DNA of 64,000 nucleotides from an uncultured bacterium (GCA_947085985.1 CAMTYL010000004.1:150885-214884); one strand, 5' to 3'. Positions 25,809-38,859 are shown, counted from the first letter of the stretch. The notes: generated from the sequence alone by a model not told the origin. Numbers and translations: made by a program.

Positions 25809-26468
25809 GTGATTTATCTTTTCTGTGGAAGCGACACGAATAAGGTTCGGGCCAAGGCCTTTCAGTGGGTAGAGGCTGCGCGCAGTAAGGCGCCAGACGC
25901 GGTGTATGTGCGACTTACGCCCGAGATGGTGACACCAGAAATGGTGCGCGGCGCGCTCAGTAGTCAGGGACTCTTTTTTTCTAAGTCACTCATCCTTCTA
26001 GACGACCCTTTTTCGCAAAGTGAAACAAGTGAGACGGTACTTGAGCTTCTAGAGGAACTCGCAGCGTCGCAGAATCCCGTTGCCATTCTTGCGCCAAAGC
26101 TTTTGGCCGCGAGAGTGAAAAAGGTAGAAGCAAAAGCAGAGAAGGTATTCAAAATTGATGTTGATAGCGCGCGCCTGCCTGCCGGCAGGCAGGGGTTTAA
26201 TAGTGCGCTCGTAAATGCGCTCGCGAACAAAGACAGCGCAGGGCTGTGGAAAGAATTACATAAAGCGTACCGACAGGGAGACGCGCCCGAACTAGTGCAC
26301 GGACTACTCCACTGGAAAGCACGCGACATGATGCAAAAAGGGAATCCGAAGTGGGGGAAGGACGGAGCGCGTACACTCTCGCGCGAACTGATTGAGTTGG
26401 TGAGCGATTCTAGAAACGGGGACTTGGCGCTTAGGGAGGGGTTGGAGCGGTTTGTGTTAAAAGTGTAG
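25809..26468 (+). CDS. DNA polymerase III delta subunit-like protein (HolA-like)
   Basis: N-terminus IYLFCGSDTNKV resembles HolA. GTG start 13 nt after a TATACT box. Confidence 0.45.
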   Translation: MIYLFCGSDTNKVRAKAFQWVEAARSKAPDAVYVRLTPEMVTPEMVRGALSSQGLFFSKSLILLDDPFSQSETSETVLELLEELAASQNPVAILAPKLLAARVKKVEAKAEKVFKIDVDSARLPAGRQGFNSALVNALANKDSAGLWKELHKAYRQGDAPELVHGLLHWKARDMMQKGNPKWGKDGARTLSRELIELVSDSRNGDLALREGLERFVLKV

Positions 26469-26478
26469 ATATCAGCAC

Positions 26479-26675
26479 GTGCGCCTACCTGGGACGTGAT
26501 TACACTTCTCGCTCCTTACAGGAGCAGTACACCTTGTGGAGATTTTGCTTCATGACTTCGCAAAATCTGCTCACAAGGTCTTCGAGCCCAGGACGCAGGC
26601 TTCCCAAGCCTGCTTAGGCGCACAAATTAAAGAACCGCCAGTGGGGCGGTTCTTTAATTTGTGCGCCTACCTGGG
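26479..26675 (-). repeat. tRNA-3'-associated structured element, Lys copy
   Basis: 15-nt direct repeat GTGCGCCTACCTGGG at 26479-26493 and 26661-26675. 23-bp hairpin GGCGCACAAATTAAAGAACCGCC-agtg-GGGCGGTTCTTTAATTTGTGCGCC overlaps the tRNA 3' end. GCAGGCTT-ccc-AAGCCTGC hairpin. Terminal GTG-TAAT-CAC hairpin. Confidence 0.6.
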
Positions 26676-26734
26676 CTCGAACCAGGGACCGTCTCCTTAA
26701 AAGGGAGCTGCTCTACCAACTGAGCTATAGGCGC
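26662..26734 (-). tRNA. tRNA-Lys (anticodon TTT)
   Basis: Hand-folded cloverleaf: GCGCCTA acceptor, D-arm GCTCAGTTGGTAGAGC, anticodon loop CTTTTAA, T-arm CCTGG-TTCGAGC-CCAGG. Confidence 0.85.
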
Positions 26735-26752
26735 ATGCTCACTGTTATACCG

Positions 26753-27754
26753 CTAATAGGTGTATAGGTCTACGGTTAGCCCATTCTCGTCCAGTAATCT
26801 AATAGCTTCACGCGAGTCTTTCCAGAGCTCTCCGTACCGCATGGTGGAGTCATTCCTGCGGGTTATTTCGGTGCGCCCCAGATAGATGCGCCAGATATCG
26901 CTATAGAAAGATGAGCTGTAGCGATAGTTCTCCACACAACCATTGTACGTGAGGCGTGAGTAGATAAGCGAAAGACAGTTGGCTGAGGTGCGGCTATCTT
27001 CCTGTGGGGTCACACACATGCTCGTATTTCTCACTAAGTTGTAGCAGGCAGTTTCTTTGTACGGGTTTCCGGTGAAGTGCCTATCAAACTCGGACGAAGG
27101 GGAAGGGCAGCGGCGACCAAGAGCAGGAGAGAAACTTTGATTCACTCCCAAATACCCCGTGCACATGTTTTCTGCAAAAGAGCCCCCTATAGGCGATTCT
27201 CCAGTTATCACGTACGCACGCTCACCTGGATACAGCACAATAGGTTCTGAAGCATTAAGTGTGCCACTTGTCGGAAGCTTTGTGCCTTGTGGAATTGTCG
27301 CACTCCTGTCGGTTGCTACAGAGACAAGCTTCCACCCAGTAATGGTTATGGGCTCTGTGGCGCTTGAGGACGCCTGAAGGACAAGGTACTCATGCTGCGG
27401 GTCGGTGGACGAAACATTCCCGCCACTGATAGTCACCAGGCCGCGCTTTGGAGAAGGGGTGCTGAACAGTGCCTGGCGCTTAGACTCTATCTGCAGATTA
27501 CCCAACTGGTACTCAATACTTTGCACACTGCTGCGCACTTCTGCAGAGCGGATACTTGGCAGGCCCCCCGTCACGTTGATGCCACCCTTATACCAATCGG
27601 TGTCACCATAGCCAACTTGAGTCTGTCCAACGCCCGTAACGGGGGTGATGAATGGCCCCGAGAATGAAATAGGATTGCTCGGGCCACCACCAGCAAGCCA
27701 CAAGACAAAGAAAAAGACCATCACTCCGAGAAAAAAGAGGAAGTCGCTTTGCAT
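26753..27754 (-). CDS. secreted/membrane-anchored hypothetical protein
   Basis: N-terminal hydrophobic segment FLFFLGVMVFFFVLWLAGG. 333 aa, Cys-containing C-terminal region. Confidence 0.45.
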   Translation of the reverse strand: MQSDFLFFLGVMVFFFVLWLAGGGPSNPISFSGPFITPVTGVGQTQVGYGDTDWYKGGINVTGGLPSIRSAEVRSSVQSIEYQLGNLQIESKRQALFSTPSPKRGLVTISGGNVSSTDPQHEYLVLQASSSATEPITITGWKLVSVATDRSATIPQGTKLPTSGTLNASEPIVLYPGERAYVITGESPIGGSFAENMCTGYLGVNQSFSPALGRRCPSPSSEFDRHFTGNPYKETACYNLVRNTSMCVTPQEDSRTSANCLSLIYSRLTYNGCVENYRYSSSFYSDIWRIYLGRTEITRRNDSTMRYGELWKDSREAIRLLDENGLTVDLYTY

Positions 27755-27773
27755 AAAAGTATAATACCGCGCC

Positions 27774-29030
27774 CTACTTCATTCGCTTGAGTTCTTCACG
27801 TACTACCTCCGCATCACTCCATGGAGTCCTTTTTCCATTTGCTTCCATGATGTATGGGTCTGTGCCTTTGCCAGTGATAAGCACCGCGTCTCCTGTGCGG
27901 GCAAGCGAAAGGGCAGTGGCAATTGCTTCTCGGCGGTCCATGATAATGCGCGGCTCACGACTCATGCCAGAGGCCATGGCGTCCATAATTGCCTGCGGGT
28001 CTTCGTCGTAGGGGTCTTCGTTTGCAAGGATTACTTCGTCGCAGTGTTCGTCTGCGATTTTACCCATCAGCGGCCGCTTCCAGGTGTCGCGGCCGCCCCC
28101 GGTGTTTCCAAGTACACAAATCTTTCTGCGCTTTCCGTACGCACCGTATAGTGCTGTGAGCGAGTCAGGGGTGTGAGCGTAGTCAACCACCGCAAGAAAA
28201 TCCTGGCCCTCTTCAATTTTTTCAGCGCGTCCTGGAATACGAGTAAGTAAGTGGAGCGCCTCACTACTTTTCTCTAGCGGCACACCAAGCCACGCAGCAG
28301 TCTTAATTGCAGCGAGAGCATTGCGTACAGAAAACTCACCGGGTTGTGGAATATCAAACGACACCCCCTCGTACGTAAACGAAACCGACTCGTTTTGATA
28401 GGAGATATTTGCGGCGTCTCCAATGCTAAACGGCAGCGCTGTTTCTACAGGAAGAGCCAGGTAGGGCTTCGCGTACTCACTGTCACTGTTAGCAATTATC
28501 GCGCGCGGGCGCTTTGTTGAGCGCGCCAGCTCTTCCCCTAGGCGGAACTTCGCGCGCGCGTATGCCTCCATGCTTCCGTGTGACTCAATATGCTCGCGTT
28601 GCAAGTTAGTAAAAATAAGCGCGTCCATAGCAAGGAACAGGTGACGATTCTGGACCGCACCTTCAGAAGTCACTTCAAGCACCGCGTAGCGCGCGCCCTT
28701 ATTTGCAGCGTCAAGCAAAAACTTTTGCAGAAATCCGCGACCAGGCATGGTCATCTTGAATAGGTTTGGGCGCGACTCCTCGTTCACCGCAAAACGGATA
28801 GTGCCGGCCATGGCGGTGGGGTAGTCTGCATGGCGCAAAATAGCAAAGAGCATTTCTGAAACCGAAGACTTTCCCTTGGTGCCCGTGATACCAATCACGG
28901 TTAGCTTTTTCGCAGGGAAGCCGTAGACAAGAGCTGCACCAAACGCCCAGAGCGCATGATAGATACGCATAAGTGCCTGGTGCAGCGAGCGGGGAAGAAG
29001 TGTTGCTAAGAGTGAGCGAAGGAAGTGCAT
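27774..29030 (-). CDS. Mur ligase family protein, MurE-like
   Basis: ATP-binding loop IGITGTKGKSS and DYAHTPDSL motif typical of MurE. Confidence 0.7.
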   Translation of the reverse strand: MHFLRSLLATLLPRSLHQALMRIYHALWAFGAALVYGFPAKKLTVIGITGTKGKSSVSEMLFAILRHADYPTAMAGTIRFAVNEESRPNLFKMTMPGRGFLQKFLLDAANKGARYAVLEVTSEGAVQNRHLFLAMDALIFTNLQREHIESHGSMEAYARAKFRLGEELARSTKRPRAIIANSDSEYAKPYLALPVETALPFSIGDAANISYQNESVSFTYEGVSFDIPQPGEFSVRNALAAIKTAAWLGVPLEKSSEALHLLTRIPGRAEKIEEGQDFLAVVDYAHTPDSLTALYGAYGKRRKICVLGNTGGGRDTWKRPLMGKIADEHCDEVILANEDPYDEDPQAIMDAMASGMSREPRIIMDRREAIATALSLARTGDAVLITGKGTDPYIMEANGKRTPWSDAEVVREELKRMK

Positions 29031-29032
29031 AA

Positions 29033-29587
29033 CTACTTTGATGCGGATGAGAGAGCCGCCTTAAGGCGTGCATCTTTACCAACGGCGGAGCGGGGAATCT
29101 GTCCAAGTGCTCCACGGGCCTCGCGCTCCGTATAGCCGAGTGCAACTAACATATCAAATACGTCCGCGTCGCTTTCATCGTGCCCCTGGTCTCGGCCCCC
29201 AAGCTTCTCAGCAAGTTCTACGATAATTTTCTCCGCAGCTTTCTTTCCAAGGCCGGCAACGCGAGTGAGGTAGTCGAGGTCACGCCCTGCAATCGCGCTC
29301 TCAAGTGAGGCGCGTGGACCACGCCGCATGATTGAAAGCGCGGTCTTTGGTCCTACGTTTGGTACTGAAAGGAGAAGTTCAAAAAAAGCCCGCTCCTCCT
29401 CAATAACAAAGCCGTATAAATCCACCCCGTCCTGTTTAATGGAGAGATAGGTCTTTAAGGTCACCTCGCTGCCGGGAGAAAGCTGTTCCGGAGCAGCCAG
29501 ATGCACAAATACACCCCAGCCAGCCACGTCTACCACCGCACCGACGGTGTCTACTGATAAAACCCTGCCACGAATCTCTCTAATCAT
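29033..29587 (-). CDS. ruvA: Holliday junction DNA helicase subunit RuvA
   Basis: MIREIRGRVLSV... OB-fold N-terminus, helix-hairpin-helix region, 184 aa. Confidence 0.85.
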   Translation of the reverse strand: MIREIRGRVLSVDTVGAVVDVAGWGVFVHLAAPEQLSPGSEVTLKTYLSIKQDGVDLYGFVIEEERAFFELLLSVPNVGPKTALSIMRRGPRASLESAIAGRDLDYLTRVAGLGKKAAEKIIVELAEKLGGRDQGHDESDADVFDMLVALGYTEREARGALGQIPRSAVGKDARLKAALSSASK

Positions 29588-29643
29588 GCCTATATCCTAG
29601 CATTCTTGCATCTGCACCGGATATATCGTACTATCCGTTCTAC

Positions 29644-29907
29644 ATGGCAATCACTTCATCAGCAAAGAAGGCGCACCGAGCTTCCCTTAAGAAGCGCGTA
29701 TATAACGTGCGCCGCAAGCGTGCAGTTACCGACACTACCAAAGCAGTAAAGAAGCTTATGGGGACGGACACCAAGGCAGCAAACGAGTCGCTCAGCGCCG
29801 CATTCAAGGCACTTGATAAGGCAGCAAAGGGAGGCACGATTAAGAAGAACACCGCTGACCGCAAGAAGTCGCGCCTCGCAAAGGCTATCGCTCGCGCAGC
29901 AAAGTAA
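29644..29907 (+). CDS. rpsT: 30S ribosomal protein S20
   Basis: MAITSSAKKAHRASLKKRVYNVRRKRAVT... basic 87-aa protein. Confidence 0.85.
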   Translation: MAITSSAKKAHRASLKKRVYNVRRKRAVTDTTKAVKKLMGTDTKAANESLSAAFKALDKAAKGGTIKKNTADRKKSRLAKAIARAAK

Positions 29908-29911
29908 GAAG

Positions 29912-29937
29912 AAACCCCGGCAAGGCCGGGGTTTTTC
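29912..29937 (+). terminator. intrinsic terminator after rpsT
   Basis: CCCCGGC-aag-GCCGGGG followed by TTTTT. Confidence 0.65.
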
Positions 29938-29949
29938 TTTTATTACTGA

Positions 29950-30139
29950 CTCGGTAGGAACCGGCGAGTACGCCTTTCGGTCACACATAAATCTCTGCTA
30001 AGATTTTGCGCGACCCCCACTCGCCGTCGACACGGCTCCGTGCTTCGATTCCTACACGTGAGCCTCCCAGGCTCACTCGAGAGCACCAAATGAAAACAGC
30101 CCTAACTGGGCTGTTTTCATTTGGTGCTCTCGGTAGGAA
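29950..30139 (-). repeat. tRNA-3'-associated structured element, Arg-GCG copy (element D)
   Basis: 11-nt direct repeat CTCGGTAGGAA at 29950 and 30129. 24-bp hairpin GAGAGCACCAAATGAAAACAGCCC-taact-GGGCTGTTTTCATTTGGTGCTCTC (30079-30131). GAGCCT-ccc-AGGCTC hairpin. Core shares GAATCGAA, GCGAGTGGGGGTCGCG and CGAAAG-GCG-TACT-CGC with the other copies. Confidence 0.6.
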
Positions 30140-30196
30140 TCGAACCTACATTGCATCCTCCGCAAGGATGCGTCCTATCCATTGAACGACGAGAGC
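30125..30196 (-). tRNA. tRNA-Arg (anticodon GCG), CCA encoded
   Basis: Hand-folded: acceptor GCTCTCG/CGAGAGC, anticodon stem CATCC/GGATG with loop TTGCGGA, T-arm GTAGG-TTCGATT-CCTAC, discriminator A then CCA. Confidence 0.75.
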
Positions 30197-30206
30197 GAGT
30201 GAGGCA

Positions 30207-30400
30207 AATAGAAATGTGAACGCAGTTCATGTTTCTATTTCGCCGAGCGAGCTCGTGTACCCCTAACGAGTCTTCGAGTGTACGGGGTACGAGAGCGAGG
30301 TGCTCATTCTGTGCGCCGAACGAGCTTGTGTACCCCCGCGAGTCCTCGAGCAGAGGGGTACGAGAGCCTGGGCTCGCTGACACGTTTTTGACTTTATCCT
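30207..30400. repeat. palindrome plus two tandem ~55-nt structured repeats upstream of tRNA-Arg(GCG)
   Basis: AAATAGAAA...TTTCTATTT palindrome at 30207-30241. Units CGAGCTCGTGTACCCCTAACGAGTCTTCGAGTGTACGGGGTACGAGAGC and CGAGCTTGTGTACCCCCGCGAGTCCTCGAGCAGAGGGGTACGAGAGC, each with a GTACCCC/GGGGTAC stem. Confidence 0.5.
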
Positions 30401-30422
30401 TTCTGAGCACTATTGGCAACTT

Positions 30423-30896
30423 TTACAGGCGGAAGCGATGGATGAGCATGTCAAAGAAAGATTCATCATGTTTACCTTCTTCAACGTGCGCGCTGAAGAA
30501 GTCGTACACCTCTACGGGGTCGTGATCAACAATAGGAACAAGAATGTGGGGGGCAAAAATACGCTTGGTCTTTATGGAGAGAGATGGCGGCCACGCTGGG
30601 TCTGCGTATTCAAGGACCGAGAAGTGGAGCATCTCCTCGTAGGTATATAGAATCTGGTCAACATACAGTCCCTCTTCGGTAATGGTAAATACGTGTCGTG
30701 TCGGAGCGCGCAGTGCCTGAAGGGCAACAGTACCGCTGGCGGCTATCACCACGAGAGCGAGGATGAAATTTCCAAAGAGAATACAGGCAACCACTCCAGC
30801 GACAGCGATAACGCCAAGAGACCAGTACCAGTCGGCACCTTTTTCTTCAAACGTGTATTCCTGTGCTTCCCACTGGTAGAAGACCGTGCGGGCCAT
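30423..30896 (-). CDS. small membrane protein
   Basis: 157 aa with two TM helices (WSLGVIAVAGVVACILFGNFILALVVIAASG). Confidence 0.4.
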   Translation of the reverse strand: MARTVFYQWEAQEYTFEEKGADWYWSLGVIAVAGVVACILFGNFILALVVIAASGTVALQALRAPTRHVFTITEEGLYVDQILYTYEEMLHFSVLEYADPAWPPSLSIKTKRIFAPHILVPIVDHDPVEVYDFFSAHVEEGKHDESFFDMLIHRFRL

Positions 30897-30950
30897 ATAA
30901 ATGTAATACTAGCACTCGTGAGTTGATGTAGATGGAGTAATGCACCAAAA

Positions 30951-30980
30951 GATAAAACCCGCCATGTGGCGGGTTTTATC
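30951..30980. terminator. bidirectional terminator after tRNA-Ser
   Basis: GATAAAACCCGCCA/TGGCGGGTTTTATC perfect palindrome. Confidence 0.65.
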
Positions 30981-30985
30981 TTTTG

Positions 30986-31070
30986 CGGAGGAGGTGGGAT
31001 TCGAACCCACGGAGACTTTCGCCTCGGCGGTTTTCAAGACCGCTCGTTTCGACCACTCACGCACTCCTCC
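30986..31070 (-). tRNA. tRNA-Ser (anticodon TGA)
   Basis: Anticodon loop CTTGAAA, long variable arm CGAGGCGAAAGTCTCCG, T-arm GTGGG-TTCGAAT-CCCAC. Confidence 0.85.
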
Positions 31071-31079
31071 AGAGTGTTT

Positions 31080-31376
31080 TTACGCTTCCGTAGAAGCTGA
31101 TGGTGCTGGTGCCGGTGCGGGAGCAACATGAGAAGCGCTCACGCCTTTATTACGGAACCAGACAAGGTACACAATCTCTGGAATGCCAAGCAGATTCACA
31201 ACAAGCAGAAAGATAAACCAACCGTTCTGCGAGCCGCGCGCTGCGTGCCACAACGCATAGCCCTTAATCGCTACCGTCCATACGACAAACGCCATAAGGA
31301 GAGGAAACGCAAAGGGAAGCGTGAGGAACGACACCATTTCTGGAGCTCCCGGAGCCATGAACCAAGAATTCACCAT
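31080..31376 (-). CDS. small membrane protein
   Basis: 98 aa with two to three TM helices. Ala-Pro repeat at the C-terminus. Confidence 0.4.
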   Translation of the reverse strand: MVNSWFMAPGAPEMVSFLTLPFAFPLLMAFVVWTVAIKGYALWHAARGSQNGWFIFLLVVNLLGIPEIVYLVWFRNKGVSASHVAPAPAPAPSASTEA

Positions 31377-31423
31377 ACCGGGAGACTATAGCACGCCGGC
31401 TGGCTCCCGTGTAGGATTTAGCT

Positions 31424-31837
31424 ATGAGGTACTTGGCAATAGATTTTGGCACCAAGCGTGTGGGGCTTGCGCTCTCCGACGAAGGCGCACACATGGGATT
31501 TCCTCACGGCACACTTCCAAATAACGGACGCCTTATTGATGAGGTGCTAGATTTGGTTGCGCGCAAGGAAGTGGGCGCAGTGGTGATAGGAGAGTCACGC
31601 AATTACGATGGCACTCCGAACCCAGTCGCAAAAGCTGCGAAGGAATTTGGTGCACTTATTGAGCGCAGGCTAGTGGGCATGCCGGTCTACTTTGAACCAG
31701 AGACGCTTACCACCCAAGAAGCCCGTAGAAATTTTGAAGGGGTGCGCGAGCCGGGGAGTGGGGGCGCGCACGTCGACGCGTCAGCCGCTGCACTTATTTT
31801 GACCAGCTACTTAGATAGACTACACAACCATGGATAA
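31424..31837 (+). CDS. ruvX: Holliday-junction-resolvase-like nuclease YqgF/RuvX
   Basis: MRYLAIDFGTKRVGLALSD N-terminus. Confidence 0.8.
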   Translation: MRYLAIDFGTKRVGLALSDEGAHMGFPHGTLPNNGRLIDEVLDLVARKEVGAVVIGESRNYDGTPNPVAKAAKEFGALIERRLVGMPVYFEPETLTTQEARRNFEGVREPGSGGAHVDASAAALILTSYLDRLHNHG

Positions 31838-32213
31838 TTCCGAAGAACCAGTTCTTGAAGAGGTATCAGTGCAAGAGGAGCCGCGCATCAGTATTGATGA
31901 CCTTGCAAAAGTAGAAGTGAAAATTGGAACCGTACTCTCGGCGGAGCAGGTACCAGAGACAGACAAATTGCTAAAGCTCTCCGTTGAATTTGGAGAGGAG
32001 CAAGGAGCACGGCAAATCGTGTCGGGCATTAACGAGTATGTCTCGTCCCCCGAAGAGCTGGTTGGTAAGCAGCTTGCCTTTGTCACGAATTTAAAGCCGC
32101 GCACCATCAAAGGACTTGAAAGCAACGGCATGTTGTTTGCGGTAGGGAACAAGGAGACGTTTGCGTTTCTCACCCCAAGCAAGGAGGTGCCCCCTGGCAC
32201 AAGCGCGCACTAG
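31830..32213 (+). CDS. tRNA-binding domain protein (CsaA/Trbp111-like)
   Basis: DLAKVEVKIGTVLSAEQVPETDKLLKLSVEFGEE pattern of the OB-fold tRNA-binding domain. Confidence 0.7.
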   Translation: MDNSEEPVLEEVSVQEEPRISIDDLAKVEVKIGTVLSAEQVPETDKLLKLSVEFGEEQGARQIVSGINEYVSSPEELVGKQLAFVTNLKPRTIKGLESNGMLFAVGNKETFAFLTPSKEVPPGTSAH

Positions 32214-32278
32214 TTTTACACGACAGTGAAGAGAAGCCGGTCAGCGACCGGCGAGGGAGGCGGTATACTACGAATATA

Positions 32279-33382
32279 ATGTCGGACAGTCTTTTGACCC
32301 GTATAGCACGTACAGAGTTCGCGCCACCGCGGTATCTCTCGCTTACTGCGGCTGGTATAGATATTTCAACCAGCGGAATAAAGGCCGCAGTTCTTGCAGA
32401 ACGTATACACGGCCTTGAGTTAGTGAAATTTGCAGAACACCTATTACCTGCAGGTGCGGTGGTGGGTGGTGAGATAGCGGATCCAAAAGCCGTCATTGAA
32501 GCAGTGCAGACCATCGTCAAAAAGAACAATATCAAGTTTGCAAACATCGCACTTTCGGAATCCCGCAGCTATTTGTTTGAAGCAGTGCTAGAGGGTAACC
32601 ACGAGCAGGCCACCTCTAAAGAGCTCCGCAGCCTTACGGAGTCACACTTAGATGAATACGTGCCCTTGCCGCCAGCAGATGTTGCGTTTGATGTCGCGCT
32701 CACTGCAACAACAAAGGACACCACCACGGTGGTGGGCGTGGGGTATGCACGACGAGTGATAGACGAATCGCTCGCAACGCTAGACGACGTCGGCATCACC
32801 ACGCGCGCGATTGAAAGCGAAATATTTTCAATTGCACGCGCGCTTATTCCCCATGACAGCACCGAGACGGTACTCATCATTGATATAGGAAAGACCACCA
32901 CAAAGTTAGCGGTGGTAACGGGGCAAACCCCACGATTTGCGACAACACTAGATATTGGAGGAGACTCGCTCACGCAGGCAGTGATGAAGCACTTTGGTGT
33001 AAGTGAAGAGGAAGCAAAGAAAGTAAAGGCGGAGAAGGGCTTGGTAAGCGAGGGCGGCAAGGACGAGTACATGTCTTCTATGCTCCTCACGGTTTCAGCA
33101 ATTCGCGACGAAATTAGTCACCGCCTTGAGTACTGGCAGGGGAGGGCGCAGATGGGAACTGCACACGAACCAGTTACTCGTGTCATCCTAACGGGCGGAA
33201 ACGCCACCGTCCGCGGGCTACCAGAGTATTTGGAGACTGCCATTAAGCTCCCGGTGGCACTTGGTGACGTGTTCACCAACCTAGCTTCTCGCGATCATTG
33301 GCTGCCACCCCTTGATTACATGGAGTCGCTCGCGTACGCAACCGCCATTGGTCTTGCACTGCGTGATTTTCACACAACCTAA
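32279..33382 (+). CDS. pilM: type IV pilus assembly protein PilM
   Basis: Actin-like ATPase N-terminus GIDISTSGIKAAVL. 367 aa. Followed by pilN/pilO-like genes. Confidence 0.75.
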   Translation: MSDSLLTRIARTEFAPPRYLSLTAAGIDISTSGIKAAVLAERIHGLELVKFAEHLLPAGAVVGGEIADPKAVIEAVQTIVKKNNIKFANIALSESRSYLFEAVLEGNHEQATSKELRSLTESHLDEYVPLPPADVAFDVALTATTKDTTTVVGVGYARRVIDESLATLDDVGITTRAIESEIFSIARALIPHDSTETVLIIDIGKTTTKLAVVTGQTPRFATTLDIGGDSLTQAVMKHFGVSEEEAKKVKAEKGLVSEGGKDEYMSSMLLTVSAIRDEISHRLEYWQGRAQMGTAHEPVTRVILTGGNATVRGLPEYLETAIKLPVALGDVFTNLASRDHWLPPLDYMESLAYATAIGLALRDFHTT

Positions 33383-33385
33383 GCC

Positions 33386-33931
33386 ATGAACCTGCTCCCC
33401 GACAGTAGAAAGAAGCGTCTCGCACAACTCTATCTGGTGAGGCTAAGTGTGGTGAGCGCCGCACTCCTCGCGGCGGTGGGCGTAATTCACGCTGCGCTCT
33501 CCATTCCTTCACTTGTGTACGCACATCAGCTGGTGACCGACCGCACACAGACACTCTCCAGTCTTGGTGAGCAGCTGGCAGGAGCGGAGGATAAGCAGGT
33601 TGGAGAGCGTGTAGCGCACCTGGCTACTTCTGCCACAGCGCTCACGGGAAGCACACAAGGAGTGGCAGTGAGCAGCTTACTTCGCGCGCTCACTCAGATT
33701 GATCATCCGGGAGTTTCAATTACAGGCATGTCGTTTACTCGCGCACAGGCCCCGGATGCACACCGGCTTACTATTTCTGGAAAGGCAATAGGAAGAGGAG
33801 CACTACGCTCATATGCGACTGCACTTGGAACGCTTTCGTACGTAAAGACTGTTGATTTGCCCGTCAGTGCGTATGCAAAGGAAAGTGATATTGATTTCTC
33901 GCTTACGCTCATAGGTACCCTCACGCCATGA
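33386..33931 (+). CDS. PilN-like pilus assembly protein
   Basis: Single N-terminal TM helix (LSVVSAALLAAVGVIHAAL) with coiled-coil. Position after pilM. Confidence 0.5.
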   Translation: MNLLPDSRKKRLAQLYLVRLSVVSAALLAAVGVIHAALSIPSLVYAHQLVTDRTQTLSSLGEQLAGAEDKQVGERVAHLATSATALTGSTQGVAVSSLLRALTQIDHPGVSITGMSFTRAQAPDAHRLTISGKAIGRGALRSYATALGTLSYVKTVDLPVSAYAKESDIDFSLTLIGTLTP

Positions 33932-34458
33932 ACCGCCCCCTCTTACTTCACGCGCTCGTTGCTCTAGCCTTACTAGTAATTGCACTTAGTGCAGTGGTTG
34001 GCACGTCGATCGTGCTTGTAAGTACGGAAAAGGAGGCGGACCGTCTCGCAGCACAGATTGAAGAGAAGCAGGCAGAAATGCTCCGTGTGGCCGCAGCAAA
34101 GGCAGCGCTCCCGCTACTGGTAGAGGCTGAAGGAAAACTCGCAAAGCACAGCTTGCAAACAAGCGACATAGTCCCGTTTCTGGAAGAACTTGAGAGGCTG
34201 GGTAGGGTGCAGGGAGCAGACGTTGAAGTACTGTCAGTAACGGGAGGGCAAGGAAATCCTGCTCAACGTTTTTCACTCTCTCTCAAGGTGTCTGGCTCCT
34301 ACGACGCAGTGGCGCGCACCATTGGACGCATTGAATACGGACCGTACGACACTCAACTCACCACGCTCACTATTGATAGCGGCTTCGCAGAAGGATCAAA
34401 GAACAGGACATGGACTGCAGCGGCTGTTTTCTCAATAGGCGCCAGCGCCACCAACTAG
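33928..34458 (+). CDS. PilO-like pilus assembly protein
   Basis: N-terminal TM helix plus coiled-coil (AAQIEEKQAEMLRVAAAKAAL). Overlapping start with the upstream gene. Confidence 0.5.
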   Translation: MNRPLLLHALVALALLVIALSAVVGTSIVLVSTEKEADRLAAQIEEKQAEMLRVAAAKAALPLLVEAEGKLAKHSLQTSDIVPFLEELERLGRVQGADVEVLSVTGGQGNPAQRFSLSLKVSGSYDAVARTIGRIEYGPYDTQLTTLTIDSGFAEGSKNRTWTAAAVFSIGASATN

Positions 34459-34459
34459 T

Positions 34460-34765
34460 ATGAAAAAATTATTTCCCTCACTACACACGGTTAAAGAGCT
34501 GTTTAAGGTACGGACGCACACGCACCCCGCGCGCGATTGGTTTGTGTTGCTTGGTCTCACTGCACTCCTAATAGGCCTAAGTATTGGTTGGAATGTATGG
34601 AGGTACCTTTCAGTTACCAGCACTCCTGCAACAGAGAGCGAGACAGTGGCAATACCTGAGTTTGATACGAGTGCCGTGGACGCTGTGGAGAAGGTGTTTG
34701 AAGAACGCGCCGCTGAAGCGCGTCGCTACCAGGACACCTATCGTTTCGTTGACCCAAGCCGATAA
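34460..34765 (+). CDS. small membrane protein in the pilMNO cluster
   Basis: 101 aa with one TM helix (FVLLGLTALLIGLSIGWNVW). Confidence 0.35.
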   Translation: MKKLFPSLHTVKELFKVRTHTHPARDWFVLLGLTALLIGLSIGWNVWRYLSVTSTPATESETVAIPEFDTSAVDAVEKVFEERAAEARRYQDTYRFVDPSR

Positions 34766-34784
34766 CCTGGGCTACTGTAGAGGA

Positions 34785-34856
34785 GCCCCCATAGCTCAAT
34801 GGATAGAGCAGGAGACTTCTAAGCTCTTGATGTAGGTTCGATTCCTGCTGGGGGCA
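34785..34856 (+). tRNA. tRNA-Arg (anticodon TCT)
   Basis: Acceptor GCCCCCA/TGGGGGC, D-arm GCTCAATGGATAGAGC, anticodon loop CTTCTAA, T-arm GTAGG-TTCGATT-CCTGC. Confidence 0.85.
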
Positions 34857-35043
34857 CAAAAATGAAAAACTAAGACGGCGTCTTAGTTTTTCTATTTTTT
34901 GTAGGCACCAGCAGGAATCGAAAGCCGGAGCGATACGCGAGCAGCAGCGAGCGTCGCGAGGTGGGGTCGCGTGCATTTGCGAGTGACGACGAGCAAATAA
35001 CAGGTGACCGAAAGTGGTACTCCACGGTTCCTGCTCCAGGCAC
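34857..35043 (+). repeat. tRNA-3'-associated structured element, Arg-TCT copy (element A)
   Basis: AAAATGAAAAACTAAGACG hairpin overlaps the tRNA 3' end. Core has GAATCGAAAGCCGGAGCGAT, GCGAGGTGGGGTCGCG, GCGAGTGACGACGAG and CGAAAG-TGG-TACT-CCA-CGG. Ends with a degenerate copy of the tRNA 3' end (TTCCTGCTCCAGGCAC). Confidence 0.6.
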
Positions 35044-35052
35044 ATAAACACG

Positions 35053-35080
35053 AAAAGGACCGGCAACGGCCGGTCCTTTT
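35053..35080. terminator. bidirectional terminator after tRNA-Val
   Basis: AAAAGGACCGGC-aac-GCCGGTCCTTTT. Confidence 0.65.
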
Positions 35081-35089
35081 CTGTGCGGG

Positions 35090-35162
35090 TGGGCGATAGA
35101 GGACTCGAACCTCTGACCATTCCGGTGTAAACGGAGTGCTCTACCAACTGAGCTAATCGCCC
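35090..35162 (-). tRNA. tRNA-Val (anticodon TAC)
   Basis: Acceptor GGGCGAT, D-arm GCTCAGTTGGTAGAGC, anticodon loop TTTACAC, T-arm AGAGG-TTCGAGT-CCTCT. Confidence 0.85.
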
Positions 35163-37493: not shown

Positions 37494-37514
37494 TACGCCC
37501 CAGCATATTTGTAA

Positions 37515-37556
37515 AAAATGAGCCGGCCCGCTATAGTAAGCGGGCCGGCTCATTTT
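37515..37556 (+). terminator. intrinsic terminator after rplS
   Basis: AAAATGAGCCGGCCCGC-tatagta-AGCGGGCCGGCTCATTTT. Confidence 0.7.
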
Positions 37557-37571
37557 GAGCTCGTATGCCAT

Positions 37572-37656
37572 GCCCAGGTGGTGAAATTGGTATACACGCA
37601 TCCTTGAGGTGGATGTGGCTTCGGCTGTGGAGGTTCAAGTCCTCTCCTGGGCACCA
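37572..37656 (+). tRNA. tRNA-Leu (anticodon GAG), CCA encoded
   Basis: Anticodon loop TTGAGGT, long variable arm TGGCTTCGGCTGT, T-arm GGAGG-TTCAAGT-CCTCT, acceptor GCCCAGG/CCTGGGC. Confidence 0.85.
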
Positions 37657-37852
37657 AATGAAAAAACGCCTTCGGGCGTTTTTTCATTTGGTGCCCAGGA
37701 AGCAGGGTGTCTGCACACCCTGCAGGAGGACTTGAAAGCCGGAGCGATGCTTTGCTCAGCAGAGCAAAGCCGCGAGGCGGGGCTGCGACCGAGCCGAGTG
37801 ACGACGAGGCGAGAGTTGTAGCCAAAAGCGTAATCGCGTGTCCTCTCCTGGG
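37653..37852 (+). repeat. tRNA-3'-associated structured element, Leu copy (element B)
   Basis: 25-bp hairpin CCTGGGCACCAAATGAAAAAACGCC-ttcg-GGCGTTTTTTCATTTGGTGCCCAGG. GCAGGGTG-tctgca-CACCCTGC hairpin. Core carries GGAGGACTTGAAAGCCGGAGCGAT, GCGAGGCGGGG, GAGTGACGACGAG and AAAGCG-TAAT-CGC. Direct repeat GTCCTCTCCTGGGC at 37639 and 37839, exactly 200 bp apart. Confidence 0.65.
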
Positions 37853-37898
37853 CCGCATTTCATCATTTTCCGAAAAACGTGCTATAACGCATCTACAT

Positions 37899-37972
37899 GG
37901 CGGCTATAGTTTAGTGGTAAAACTCAGGTTTGTGGAGCCTGTATCGAGAGTTCGATTCTCTCTAGCCGCCCA
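37899..37972 (+). tRNA. tRNA-His (anticodon GTG) with G-1
   Basis: G-1 followed by GCGGCTA acceptor and discriminator C. Anticodon loop TTGTGGA. T-arm GAGAG-TTCGATT-CTCTC. Confidence 0.85.
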
Positions 37973-38175
37973 GATATGAAAACCGCCTTTGGCGGCTTTT
38001 TCATATCTGGGCGGCTAAGCAGGTAATCTGCATTACCTGCGAGAGAGAATCGAACGCCGGAGCATGTTTCTCTCAGTAGAGAGAAACAGCGAGGCGGTGC
38101 CCAGAGCAAGCCGAGTGACGACGAGGCGCAGACTCGCGGGCGAAAGTGGTAATCCACGTTTCTCTCTAGCCGCCC
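37973..38175 (+). repeat. tRNA-3'-associated structured element, His copy (element C)
   Basis: Hairpin TAGCCGCCCAGATATGAAAACCGCC-tttg-GCGGCTTTTTCATATCTGGGCGGCTA. GCAGGTAAT-ctgc-ATTACCTGC hairpin. Core carries GAGAGAGAATCGAACGCCGGAGC, GCGAGGCGGTG, GAGTGACGACGAG and CGAAAG-TGG-TAAT-CCA-CG. 17-nt direct repeat TTCTCTCTAGCCGCCCA at 37956 and 38159. Confidence 0.65.
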
Positions 38176-38286
38176 AAATCAGCCAACCCAGAAGTGAATA
38201 CTTCCGGGTTGTTGCTGTTTGCAGAAGCTAGCTTGTCTTTTGGTCTGGTTGCACATACCATTCCCTTCGGAAAAGGGGGTATCAAC

Positions 38287-38859
38287 ATGTACAAAGTTTT
38301 TGCAGGGTTCAAGGTTCCCGAAATCTTGAACCCGTTTGCGGAAAATATCGACCGACTCGTGGTGGTACACGGCGGACCTGTCGTGCGGCGTAAACACCCA
38401 CTACACGTCACCGTCATGGCGCCACGAACCGTACGAGATCAGCAGCGCCATGAGCTCGAAGCGTTTGCACAGGAGTTCAATACTGACTACGGAAATGTGC
38501 CGTGTCGTATTGCGTCCCTTCAGCGCTACGAGCACCGCAGCAAGAAGTTCTTTGTTGCAAGTCTCACGGGGCAGCAATTGAGCGACACCATTGATCACTT
38601 TCACCACGAGCTGCATAGGAGATTTTCCTTCACACGGCGTCAACATGAGGGAACAAAGCCTCACATAACGCTGGTCAGCTCCAAGCACACGCGAAGGCAA
38701 GAGGTGTTTGACCGCGTGGTCAGTGCCGCTCACAGTATTGAGTACCCGCGAGAGCCTCTCCGTCTCCCGCACATCGTTCTTCATGTCCACAAGGAGGGAA
38801 CAGAATTACCGCACGTTTCGCCGCCACCAGGTGAACCGCACGCTGGGTGGCAGCCATAG
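38287..38859 (+). CDS. 2H phosphoesterase superfamily protein (LigT / 2'-5' RNA ligase-like)
   Basis: Two H-x-T/S-x motifs (HVTVM; HITLVS) at the expected spacing. AAGGGGG RBS before ATG 38287. Confidence 0.6.
   Translation: MYKVFAGFKVPEILNPFAENIDRLVVVHGGPVVRRKHPLHVTVMAPRTVRDQQRHELEAFAQEFNTDYGNVPCRIASLQRYEHRSKKFFVASLTGQQLSDTIDHFHHELHRRFSFTRRQHEGTKPHITLVSSKHTRRQEVFDRVVSAAHSIEYPREPLRLPHIVLHVHKEGTELPHVSPPPGEPHAGWQP

Follow-up and report, generated by a model that had tools for sequence, protein, structure and literature searches.

A candidate structured insertion element at the 3′ ends of tRNA genes in Patescibacteria

Results

Long hairpins at tRNA 3′ ends

A 64,000-nucleotide (nt) stretch of DNA from an uncultured bacterium (GCA_947085985.1 CAMTYL010000004.1:150885-214884; the whole stretch is called the window below) contains seven tRNA genes identified with ARAGORN, and an inverted-repeat search places long hairpins at the 3′ ends of several of them. 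We describe these hairpins and the element to which they belong, a non-coding structured sequence that we are inclined to regard as a small insertion. At tRNA-Leu(GAG), the hairpin arms (37645-37670 and 37675-37700) are 26 nt long, 100% complementary, and separated by a 4-nt loop; because the gene ends at 37656, 12 of its nucleotides, including the encoded CCA, lie inside the stem. The same arrangement recurs at tRNA-Arg(GCG) (30078-30102 and 30108-30132; 25 nt, 100%; 11 tRNA nucleotides including the CCA), at tRNA-Lys (26615-26639 and 26645-26669; 25 nt, 100%; nine tRNA nucleotides, the CCA not being encoded), and at tRNA-His (37963-37982 and 37998-38017; 20 nt, 100%; nine tRNA nucleotides), where the arms enclose an inner CCGCC/GGCGG hairpin. 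At all four genes, the outer part of the 5′ arm is the final 9-12 nt of the tRNA.

A sequence-only reading of this stretch had reported these four hairpins, and we recover them with perfect arms of 20-26 nt and coordinates that agree within 1 nt. It missed a fifth, degraded case at tRNA-Arg(TCT), where 26-nt arms (34837-34862 and 34897-34922) are 81% complementary. It also expected such hairpins at tRNA genes elsewhere in the genome, which holds only in part: tRNA-Ser and tRNA-Val lack the feature and serve as internal negative controls. The hairpins behind them (30946-30985 and 35052-35081) overlap the tRNA by 1 nt and not at all, respectively, and are ordinary terminators with no element.

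The inner parts of the long hairpins look like intrinsic terminators, which agrees with the suggestion that the hairpins would double as such. A terminator scan flags the inner hairpins at tRNA-His (37983-37995, followed by CTTTTTCATA), tRNA-Arg(TCT), and tRNA-Val, and the inner hairpin at tRNA-Leu reads in the sequence as GGCG followed by TTTTTT, the G+C hairpin and U tract of a terminator. At tRNA-Leu the U run begins at 37679 and the antisense arm at 37689, which places the U tract inside the 3′ arm and ahead of the complement of the acceptor strand.

Layout of the element

We read the sequence downstream of the five tRNA genes and searched it for copies of the tRNA tail. In all five copies the order on the tRNA strand, 5′ to 3′, is A, Y, I1, P2, I2, core, P6, D, and resident flank, with the exception that P2 has no counterpart in the Arg-TCT copy. 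Copy A is the final ~20 nt of the tRNA, and Y is a module of A tract, GC hairpin, and U tract. I1 is the acceptor 3′ strand in antisense; I2 is the T-stem 3′ strand and T-loop in antisense, ending in ...TCGAA or ...TTGAA. The core spans ~100 nt and is of two types: type A is a pair of irregular hairpins (H1 and H2) with abundant tandem G-A motifs, and type B is a different module. P6 is a small, optional hairpin. D repeats, in direct orientation, the 3′ strands of the T stem and the acceptor stem (14 nt at Leu, 17 nt at His, 15 nt at Lys, and 11 nt at Arg-GCG; just 8 nt are exact in the degraded Arg-TCT copy). The long hairpin is thus A-Y-I1, the left edge of a non-coding structured element of roughly 150-190 nt, and the downstream copy of the acceptor 5′ strand noticed in the sequence-only reading is indeed present. 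The features of the tRNA-Leu copy are as follows.

37572-37656, plus strand: tRNA-Leu(GAG), CCA encoded, the last ~18 nt being copy A (ARAGORN; Rfam tRNA)
37645-37700, plus strand: long hairpin of the tRNA-Leu 3′ end, Y, and I1 (inverted-repeat search)
37657-37688, plus strand: Y, terminator-like, AAUGAAAAAACGCC-UUCG-GGCGUUUUUUCAUU, U tract ahead of I1 (sequence reading)
37689-37699, plus strand: I1, antisense of the acceptor 3′ strand and CCA, TGGTGCCCAGG (16-nt inverted match)
37702-37723, plus strand: P2, hairpin of 9 base pairs (bp), GCAGGGUGU-CUGC-ACACCCUGC, at the acceptor/T-stem junction (fold)
37724-37736, plus strand: I2, antisense of the T-stem 3′ strand and T-loop, AGGAGGACTTGAA (11-nt inverted match)
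37738-37823, plus strand: type-A core, with H1 at 37738-37778 (GCCGGAGC...GCGAGGC) and H2 at 37781-37823 (tip GAGUGACGACGAG) (fold; covariance model R1, 109.8 bits; covariation)
37828-37837, plus strand: P6, GCG-UAAU-CGC (fold; covaries in the His, Arg-TCT, and Arg-GCG copies)
37840-37853, plus strand: D, direct repeat of the tRNA-Leu end, GTCCTCTCCTGGGC (14-nt direct match; alignment with the empty site L249)

The His, Arg-GCG, and Lys copies each have an equivalent of P2, as do many other loci. The Y module resembles the intrinsic terminators behind tRNA-Ser and tRNA-Val in having a short G+C stem between an A tract and a U tract; it differs from them in that the stem runs 9-12 bp further into the tRNA, because the antisense arm follows the U tract. 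No conserved open reading frame (ORF) was found in the elements, in which compensatory stem substitutions disrupt every reading frame. A small ORF was considered because GGAGCGATG in H1 resembles a ribosome-binding site and start codon, and was rejected as non-coding because compensatory stem changes give stop codons.

Empty sites and other alleles in close relatives

The syntenic rplS–tRNA-Leu–tRNA-His locus was fetched from relatives by way of homologs of L19. In L249 and L250 (L19 86% identical) and in L251 (88%), both tRNA genes are followed by plain terminators, with neither an antisense arm nor a core. L247 and L248 carry another Leu element, with a different Y, a contiguous antisense arm lacking P2, and a variant core; the His site of L247 is empty, and the L248 contig ends within tRNA-His, before its 3′ flank. 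L245 and L246 have an identical L19 protein and different Leu elements, a mostly deleted copy of the L247/L248 type in L245 and the window type in L246. The His core of L209 is placed after another hairpin. In the alignment with L249, what remains of the 3′ arm of the empty-site terminator lies after D of the window Leu copy. Y is unlike the L249 terminator; it is common to filled alleles only, with homologs in L209 and L246. The simplest reading of this alignment is that A-Y-I-core is inserted and that D and its flank are the displaced original end. Because close relatives show empty sites or other alleles at the same tRNA-Leu/His locus, the element appears to be an insertion that is gained and lost rather than an integral signal for tRNA maturation.

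These comparisons bear directly on the earlier proposal, in which the hairpin serves its own tRNA gene: it would sequester the 3′ terminus or CCA, either to protect that end or to control how RNase P or RNase Z processes it, and would double as a terminator. In support, the perfect stems take in both discriminator and CCA, and the minimum-energy fold of the full read-through transcript is predicted to pair the tRNA 3′ end with the antisense arm. However, a transcript that stops at Y never holds the sequestering strand, because the U tract lies before I1, and the antisense strand is the 5′ end of a larger conserved element with its own partner, D. The same tRNA-Leu and tRNA-His genes carry plain terminators in L249, L250, and L251, so the feature is dispensable for these tRNAs and a dedicated role in 3′ processing unlikely; tRNA-Ser and tRNA-Val in the window also lack it. 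We consider the sequestering device improbable as an explanation. A further suggestion made alongside it, that the hairpin acts as a recombination core, comes close to the comparative data on empty sites and alleles.

Tandem or nested copies with several leftover D segments, found at L172, L182, L193, and L233, fit repeated insertion. The nearest relative of a copy lies in the same genome for only 2 of 44 copies, on which ground recent intragenomic bursts were rejected.

A free-standing LAGLIDADG-like ORF lies between rplS and tRNA-Leu in two of the relatives (L209:1187-1861 and L251:3082-3762) and is lacking in the window; the L209 ORF scores 25 bits against Pfam LAGLIDADG_3 (cut-off 22.5). 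A tie between this gene and the element was considered and rejected, since its presence does not correlate with that of the element.

Predicted fold and covariation

When folded alone, the I-to-D segments take one common predicted shape, in which I:D pairing closes a multi-branch structure (z-scores of -3.7 to -8.3). The predicted closing helix of the Leu, His, and Lys copies equals the acceptor stem and T stem of the adjoining tRNA, with P2 emerging at the junction. We built a covariance model, R1, from 51 copies. In the model alignment, which was fitted to the model and whose figures therefore lean towards the modeled structure, standard pairs occupy 89.8% of cells (versus 64.4% in shuffles), all 29 pairs have double changes (553 double-change cells versus 156 in shuffles), and the covariation score is 0.633, compared with 0.07-0.10 when the partners are slid by 1-3 columns. 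Compensatory changes are likewise visible in a plain MAFFT alignment. The core pairs include 115 GU and UG combinations versus 28 AC and CA, and the tRNA-sense strand is therefore the folding strand, most simply as RNA. The unpaired conserved nucleotides of the core, GGAG, CGAG, and GAGUGACGACGA, are located in tandem G-A internal loops and are kept across Patescibacteria classes.

An insertion of 58 nt (L209:2102-2160) divides the most conserved loop of the core, between GAGU and GACGACGAG, in the Leu element of L209. Because this insertion splits the tip of H2, and because the Arg-GCG copy in the window lacks the tip, the tip is not essential for persistence.

Such conservation would also be expected of a host-beneficial non-coding RNA that is vertically kept and non-mobile, a tRNA-scaffolded regulatory or protein-binding RNA co-transcribed with the tRNA, processed by tRNA enzymes, and lost in some lineages. 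In its favor, both the tandem G-A motifs and the unpaired nucleotides of the core show deep conservation between classes of Patescibacteria, the scaffold of I1, P2, I2, P6, and D is common to two core types, the orientation is always that of the tRNA, and many D segments are perfect, carry CCA, and are followed by good terminators. This account fits poorly, however, with the empty sites and allele replacement between genomes whose L19 proteins are 86-100% identical, with the truncated, internally deleted, and tandem or nested copies, and with an H2 tip that is broken in L209 and absent from the window Arg-GCG copy; moreover, an RNA acting in trans needs no copy of the arms of a neighboring tRNA. 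A resident host RNA of this kind seems to us rather unlikely.

In the minimum-energy fold of read-through transcripts, the tRNA 5′ acceptor strand and D are predicted to pair, and A-Y-I forms one long rod, with all four related strands partnered. The order of co-transcriptional folding would favor the combination of tRNA, Y, and I:D over this minimum-energy form. The rod invites another explanation, in which the insert is a kind of intron in the T-loop or an alternative 3′ exon. Once the 5′ part of the tRNA had paired with D in a read-through transcript, A-Y-I-core would be excised, perhaps as a circular RNA that could re-insert into tRNAs at the RNA level, with reverse transcription to follow. 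Both predicted read-through folds pair the tRNA 5′ acceptor strand with D and leave A-Y-I as a rod, D is perfect with CCA in many members even without I1, and the insertion point maps to the T-loop. Weighing on the other side, no ribozyme or intron family in Rfam 15 matches, the tRNA upstream is whole and needs no splicing, the scanned genes that adjoin elements include no reverse transcriptase, and, to our knowledge, the archaeal splicing endonuclease is absent from bacteria. We judge this explanation very improbable.

The Y modules at L143, L167, L132, L190, and L181 have an A/T-rich stem and a C-GNA-G triloop (for example GCGAAGC), unlike the GC stems and UUCG-type loops of the window. Motifs of the GCGAAGC type form unusually stable DNA mini-hairpins, and such Y modules may hint at a single-stranded DNA stage.

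Arms copied from the local tRNA

The arms of 42 family members were compared with their cognate and with non-cognate tRNAs by longest exact match. D matches the cognate tRNA over a median of 9 nt, with the full 13-nt query matched in 17 of the 42, whereas non-cognate matches have a median of 5 and a 95th percentile of 6. The median for I2 is 11 of 12 with the cognate and 5 with non-cognate tRNAs. On these figures, the reach of the hairpins into the tRNA is no accident. I1 is complete (8 of 8) in 14 of the 42 members, and the constant part of the element is I2 and the core. CCA follows D at L137, L150, L168, L176, L180, L219, and L229. In the alanine copies (L121, L143, and L134), I1 is GGACCGT or GGACCTA and yields A3-U70, not G3.U70. 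The Watson-Crick complementarity of the alanine I1 to the 3′ strand shows that I1 was copied in antisense rather than from the tRNA 5′ strand. Mimicry of the substrate of an aminoacyl-tRNA synthetase is ruled out for these alanine copies, in which the identity element G3.U70 is not kept.

Arms specific to each tRNA could arise if replication switched templates, folding back at the terminator hairpin and returning at the T-arm palindrome to leave a functionless DNA palindrome, a sense-antisense-sense triplication. This mechanism accounts for tRNA-specific arms at every locus without a guide, for an antisense copy that spans exactly the terminator to the T-loop, and for the second Y copy after D in L182. 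It leaves unexplained the homologous, covarying cores at the junction, and under it Y should recur as the terminator after D, whereas the two usually differ (L168, L176, and L219; the window compared with L249). Fold-back triplication was therefore rejected as the sole origin, because Y is usually unlike the terminator after D and because the core is conserved, and a purely accidental palindrome is in our view most improbable. Template-switch fold-back may nevertheless contribute to the rebuilding of arms.

Host and family distribution

The host of the element is, as judged from its genes, a bacterial genome of the Patescibacteria (candidate phyla radiation, CPR) and not a phage. Pfam matches in the window include Mur ligase, RuvA, PilM, UppS, and LigT together with L19 (PF01245), and the L19 homologs are labeled Paceibacteria or Patescibacteria. 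A phage origin had been suggested by the dispersed tRNA genes and by PHROG DNA polymerase matches, and is countered by the Pfam housekeeping genes and L19. No related phage record was found, solely the tRNA-Leu part of the query being matched; in IMG/VR, the strict core pattern had 0 matches and a 14-mer scan returned chance matches only.

We scanned GTDB, one genome per species, with the core pattern GCCGGAGC-N15-40-GCGAGG-N10-35-GAGTGACGA and obtained at least 119 loci. Among the matches listed, lengths peak sharply at 62-68 nt; about 66 matches of the right length lie in metagenome-assembled genomes (MAGs) of Patescibacteria, 39 of them 33-85 nt 3′ of a tRNA gene on the same strand, and the remaining matches are chance occurrences in G+C-rich genomes. 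Hosts at the length peak are Saccharibacteria, Paceibacteria, Kaiser-, Woese-, and Uhrbacteria, Minisyncoccia, and unclassified Patescibacteria MAGs, and the tRNAs at those 39 are Ala, Arg, Cys, Gln, Glu, Gly, His, Leu, Lys, Pro, Ser, and Val. Trp hosts appear among the more distant or tandem copies.

Model R1 finds 78 copies in 56 Patescibacteria sequences, always in the orientation of the tRNA. Sixty-two of the copies start within 120 nt 3′ of a same-strand tRNA gene, seven are second in tandem arrays, four lie at locus edges, and three have no tRNA nearby. An element accompanies 62 of 129 tRNA genes, about half, at loci chosen for carrying at least one copy. Within the window the model recovers four copies (Leu, His, Arg-TCT, and the divergent Arg-GCG). 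Rfam 15 contains no matching family, either at the gathering score or at E<=10 for 37640-38200 and E<=1 for 26400-35100, where only tRNAs and spurious hairpins were returned. Literature searches, including searches for the literal core sequence, found no description of the element, which is widespread among Patescibacteria and apparently undescribed.

Only about 22% of the tRNA genes encode the full CCA, with equal frequency in the presence or absence of an element, and a retro-origin from an encoded CCA was rejected for this reason. In most tRNA genes of the window and of L121-L235, the acceptor stem is followed by N73-C-A-(A/T/G).

Other copies and neighboring features in the window

The window contains four further copies and two plain terminators.

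37900-37971, plus strand: tRNA-His(GTG), with G-1 at 37899 (ARAGORN)
37963-38017, plus strand: long hairpin at tRNA-His, 20-nt arms, 100%, inner hairpin terminator-like
38008-38176, plus strand: His element, type A, with I1 at 38008-38017, P2 at 38019-38040, and I2 at 38041-38055 (covariance model, 87.9 bits); continuing with H1 at 38055-38096, H2 at 38098-38142, P6 at 38146-38157, and D at 38160-38176 (tail-copy search, fold)
34785-34857, plus strand: tRNA-Arg(TCT) (ARAGORN)
34897-35043, plus strand: Arg-TCT element, type A, degraded, with no P2, a decayed I1, and a diverged D (88.7 bits; arms 81%); H1 at 34924-34962, H2 at 34965-35009, and P6 at 35014-35025 (fold)
30122-30196, minus strand: tRNA-Arg(GCG), CCA encoded (ARAGORN)
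30078-30132, minus strand: long hairpin at tRNA-Arg(GCG), 25-nt arms, 100%
29950-30091, minus strand: Arg-GCG element, divergent type A, with a tetraloop in place of the H2 tip and D truncated to 11 nt (covariance-model match at 29956-30056, 40 bits, E 3.5e-11)
26661-26734, minus strand: tRNA-Lys(TTT) (ARAGORN)
26615-26669, minus strand: long hairpin at tRNA-Lys, 25-nt arms, 100%
26479-26627, minus strand: Lys element, type B, sharing I1, P2, I2, P6, and a 15-nt D, with a different central module
30946-30985, minus strand: plain terminator after tRNA-Ser, no element, negative control
35052-35081, minus strand: plain terminator after tRNA-Val, no element, negative control

The type-A profile gives no match to the Lys element. 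In its type-B module a long hairpin, ACCUUGUGAGCAGAUU...AAUCUCCACAAGGU, comes first, then a GUACUGC hairpin and GAGA, all set in the scaffold I1-P2-I2...P6-D. Elsewhere, type B occurs after tRNA-Trp in L196 (6707-6860), where it precedes a type-A copy, and in L152, and it takes the second position after tRNA-Arg(TCT) in L208 and tRNA-Leu(TAG) in L218.

Contigs break inside the core of the His element. At the 30-mer 38116-38145, contigs from ERR4904395 and ERR3478701, two samples in which exactly this locus is present, end on one side and those from ERR3478703 and ERR3478709 on the other (Logan), and the GTDB MAG contig of L209 stops at the same point. A recombination hot spot at 38145 was considered and rejected in favor of a de Bruijn (k-mer) repeat break, as the adjoining contigs share 30 nt. 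Directly after the His element lies a gene for a LigT or 2′-5′ RNA ligase-like protein (2H phosphoesterase; 38287-38859). Its adjacency looks coincidental, because the gene is also present at the empty-site loci L249 and L251.

A promoter-like sequence, TTGTAA-17-TATAGT, is located upstream of tRNA-Leu (37509-37537) and overlaps the hairpin after rplS, and tRNA-His is preceded by the conserved TGTGCTATAAC box. None of the elements was found to contain a promoter-like site.

Discussion

Proposed explanation

On balance, we favor the interpretation that these tRNA genes carry, nested at their 3′ ends, small structured insertion elements that encode no protein, and that the long hairpins are the left junctions of these elements. 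The inserted DNA would comprise A, Y, I, and the core, and D and its flank would be the displaced original tRNA 3′ end; the element quite likely supplies the working 3′ end of the tRNA. Most transcripts would stop at the U tract of Y, before I1, and leave the tRNA end unsequestered. Upon read-through, the I:D helix would copy the T stem, together with the acceptor stem where I1 is intact, and the core would be closed as a three-way junction. That such read-through gives rise to a tRNA-scaffolded small RNA, which RNase P could release, strikes us as an evenly balanced proposition. Spread would involve no enzyme encoded by the element: either recombination would use the tRNA and D as its left and right homology arms, respectively, or templates would be switched at the universally conserved T-loop; we put forward either route, in naturally competent bacteria, only tentatively.

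Several observations weigh against this interpretation, in addition to the lean of the covariation figures described above. Read-through, processing by RNase P, and any function of the RNA are steps that we infer. We know of no mobilizing enzyme, and D segments of 17-20 nt offer little length for RecA-type recombination. I1 and a perfect D are found together in only about 6-8 of the 42 members compared, one often being absent while the other is kept, and because the full acceptor and T-stem mimic is this rare, a tRNA-like closing helix is not a universal requirement. Of 57 cores, only 9 have a nearest neighbor behind a tRNA with the same anticodon, and core lineages are not tied to tRNA identity; the rebuilding of arms at a new tRNA is thus unexplained by simple homing to orthologous tRNAs. 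Over long times, core lineages seem to move between tRNA types with their arms rebuilt, an impression drawn from a short conserved core, for which such inference is noisy. Lastly, the conserved unpaired nucleotides of the core suggest a specific partner or a catalytic role that goes beyond the explanation we favor.

A more far-reaching formulation would make these sequences a new class of protein-less mobile element of CPR tRNA genes. A conserved module, either RNA or single-stranded DNA, would enter at the universally conserved T-loop and have its closing helix rebuilt from the tRNA on which it lands, leaving a sense-antisense-sense triplication of the tRNA 3′ end. We regard this as a speculative and fairly unlikely possibility. 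Under it, the conserved core might be a ribozyme or a handle for a universal host enzyme, and there might be a rod-like circular intermediate in which D-Y-I closes the core.

Relation to known systems

Integrative elements that target tRNA genes include phages, integrative and conjugative elements, and genomic islands with attL and attR sites, and tycheposon-type islands with arrays of partial tRNA repeats. The elements described here share with them an insert that brings a replacement tRNA 3′ end, leaves the gene intact, and displaces the original end as a direct repeat, and repeated insertions likewise leave several partial tRNA ends (L172, L182, and L193). Unlike these kilobase-sized elements, however, they are 100-fold smaller, at 110-190 nt, and carry the tRNA end once more, in antisense, along with a covarying core, and their right junction lacks the T-stem/T-loop sense core expected for a tyrosine-recombinase crossover. 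No integrase or recombinase is carried by the elements or adjoins them, the neighbors being the housekeeping genes for Mur ligase, RuvA, PilM, UppS, LigT, and L19.

Miniature non-autonomous repeats of bacteria include miniature inverted-repeat transposable elements (MITEs), repetitive extragenic palindromes and bacterial interspersed mosaic elements (REP/BIME), Rickettsia palindromic elements, and the palindrome-associated transposable elements (PATEs) derived from IS200/IS605. Our elements resemble such repeats in being small, non-coding, hairpin-rich, multi-copy, and polymorphic in presence and absence. They differ in that their ends are copies of the local tRNA rather than fixed terminal inverted repeats, the duplicated segment is 14-20 nt of tRNA, the target is almost exclusively a tRNA 3′ end, and copies in the same genome are not closest relatives. 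We know of no partner transposase.

Structures that imitate or are built on tRNA include viral 3′ tRNA-like structures, the tRNA-like domain of transfer-messenger RNA, mascRNA, YrlA, and engineered tRNA-scaffold RNAs. The predicted closing helix of the Leu, His, and Lys copies similarly comprises an acceptor and a T stem, with a side hairpin at the position of the D/anticodon arm and a cargo RNA in place of the loop. Unlike those structures, the mimic is specific to the neighboring tRNA of each copy and built from antisense, and its acceptor part is absent in most members.

Covariance models of Rfam 15 gave no match to hepatitis delta virus (HDV)-like (theta) or other self-cleaving ribozymes, and none to group I or group II introns, in keeping with the complete upstream tRNA. 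Nor was there an Rfam match to T-box riboswitches; the elements lie downstream of tRNAs, and their own downstream neighbors vary. Resemblances to hammerhead, K-turn, sarcin-ricin, T-loop, and T-box motifs were considered by eye as possible leads, and none fits the consensus. HDV-like theta ribozymes are reported to lie immediately 3′ of phage tRNA genes (PMC10879173). The likeness to these is one of position only, a conserved structured RNA directly downstream of a tRNA on the same strand; the present elements differ from the ribozymes described there in having a bacterial chromosome as host, a terminator hairpin between tRNA and element, and arms derived from the tRNA.

Implications

The element covaries strongly, yet neither Rfam 15 nor the literature that can be searched contains it. 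In practical terms, as a repeat, it breaks metagenome assemblies at tRNA loci, with the contigs of several samples ending inside the His element, and it gives rise to pseudo-tRNA 3′ fragments that annotation should recognize. If the core is a ribozyme or a handle for a protein, it would represent a new class of functional RNA that is easily tested in vitro. If the element is mobile, it would colonize essential genes without harm and without an encoded enzyme, and it would serve as a marker of DNA exchange among uncultivated, ultra-small bacteria.

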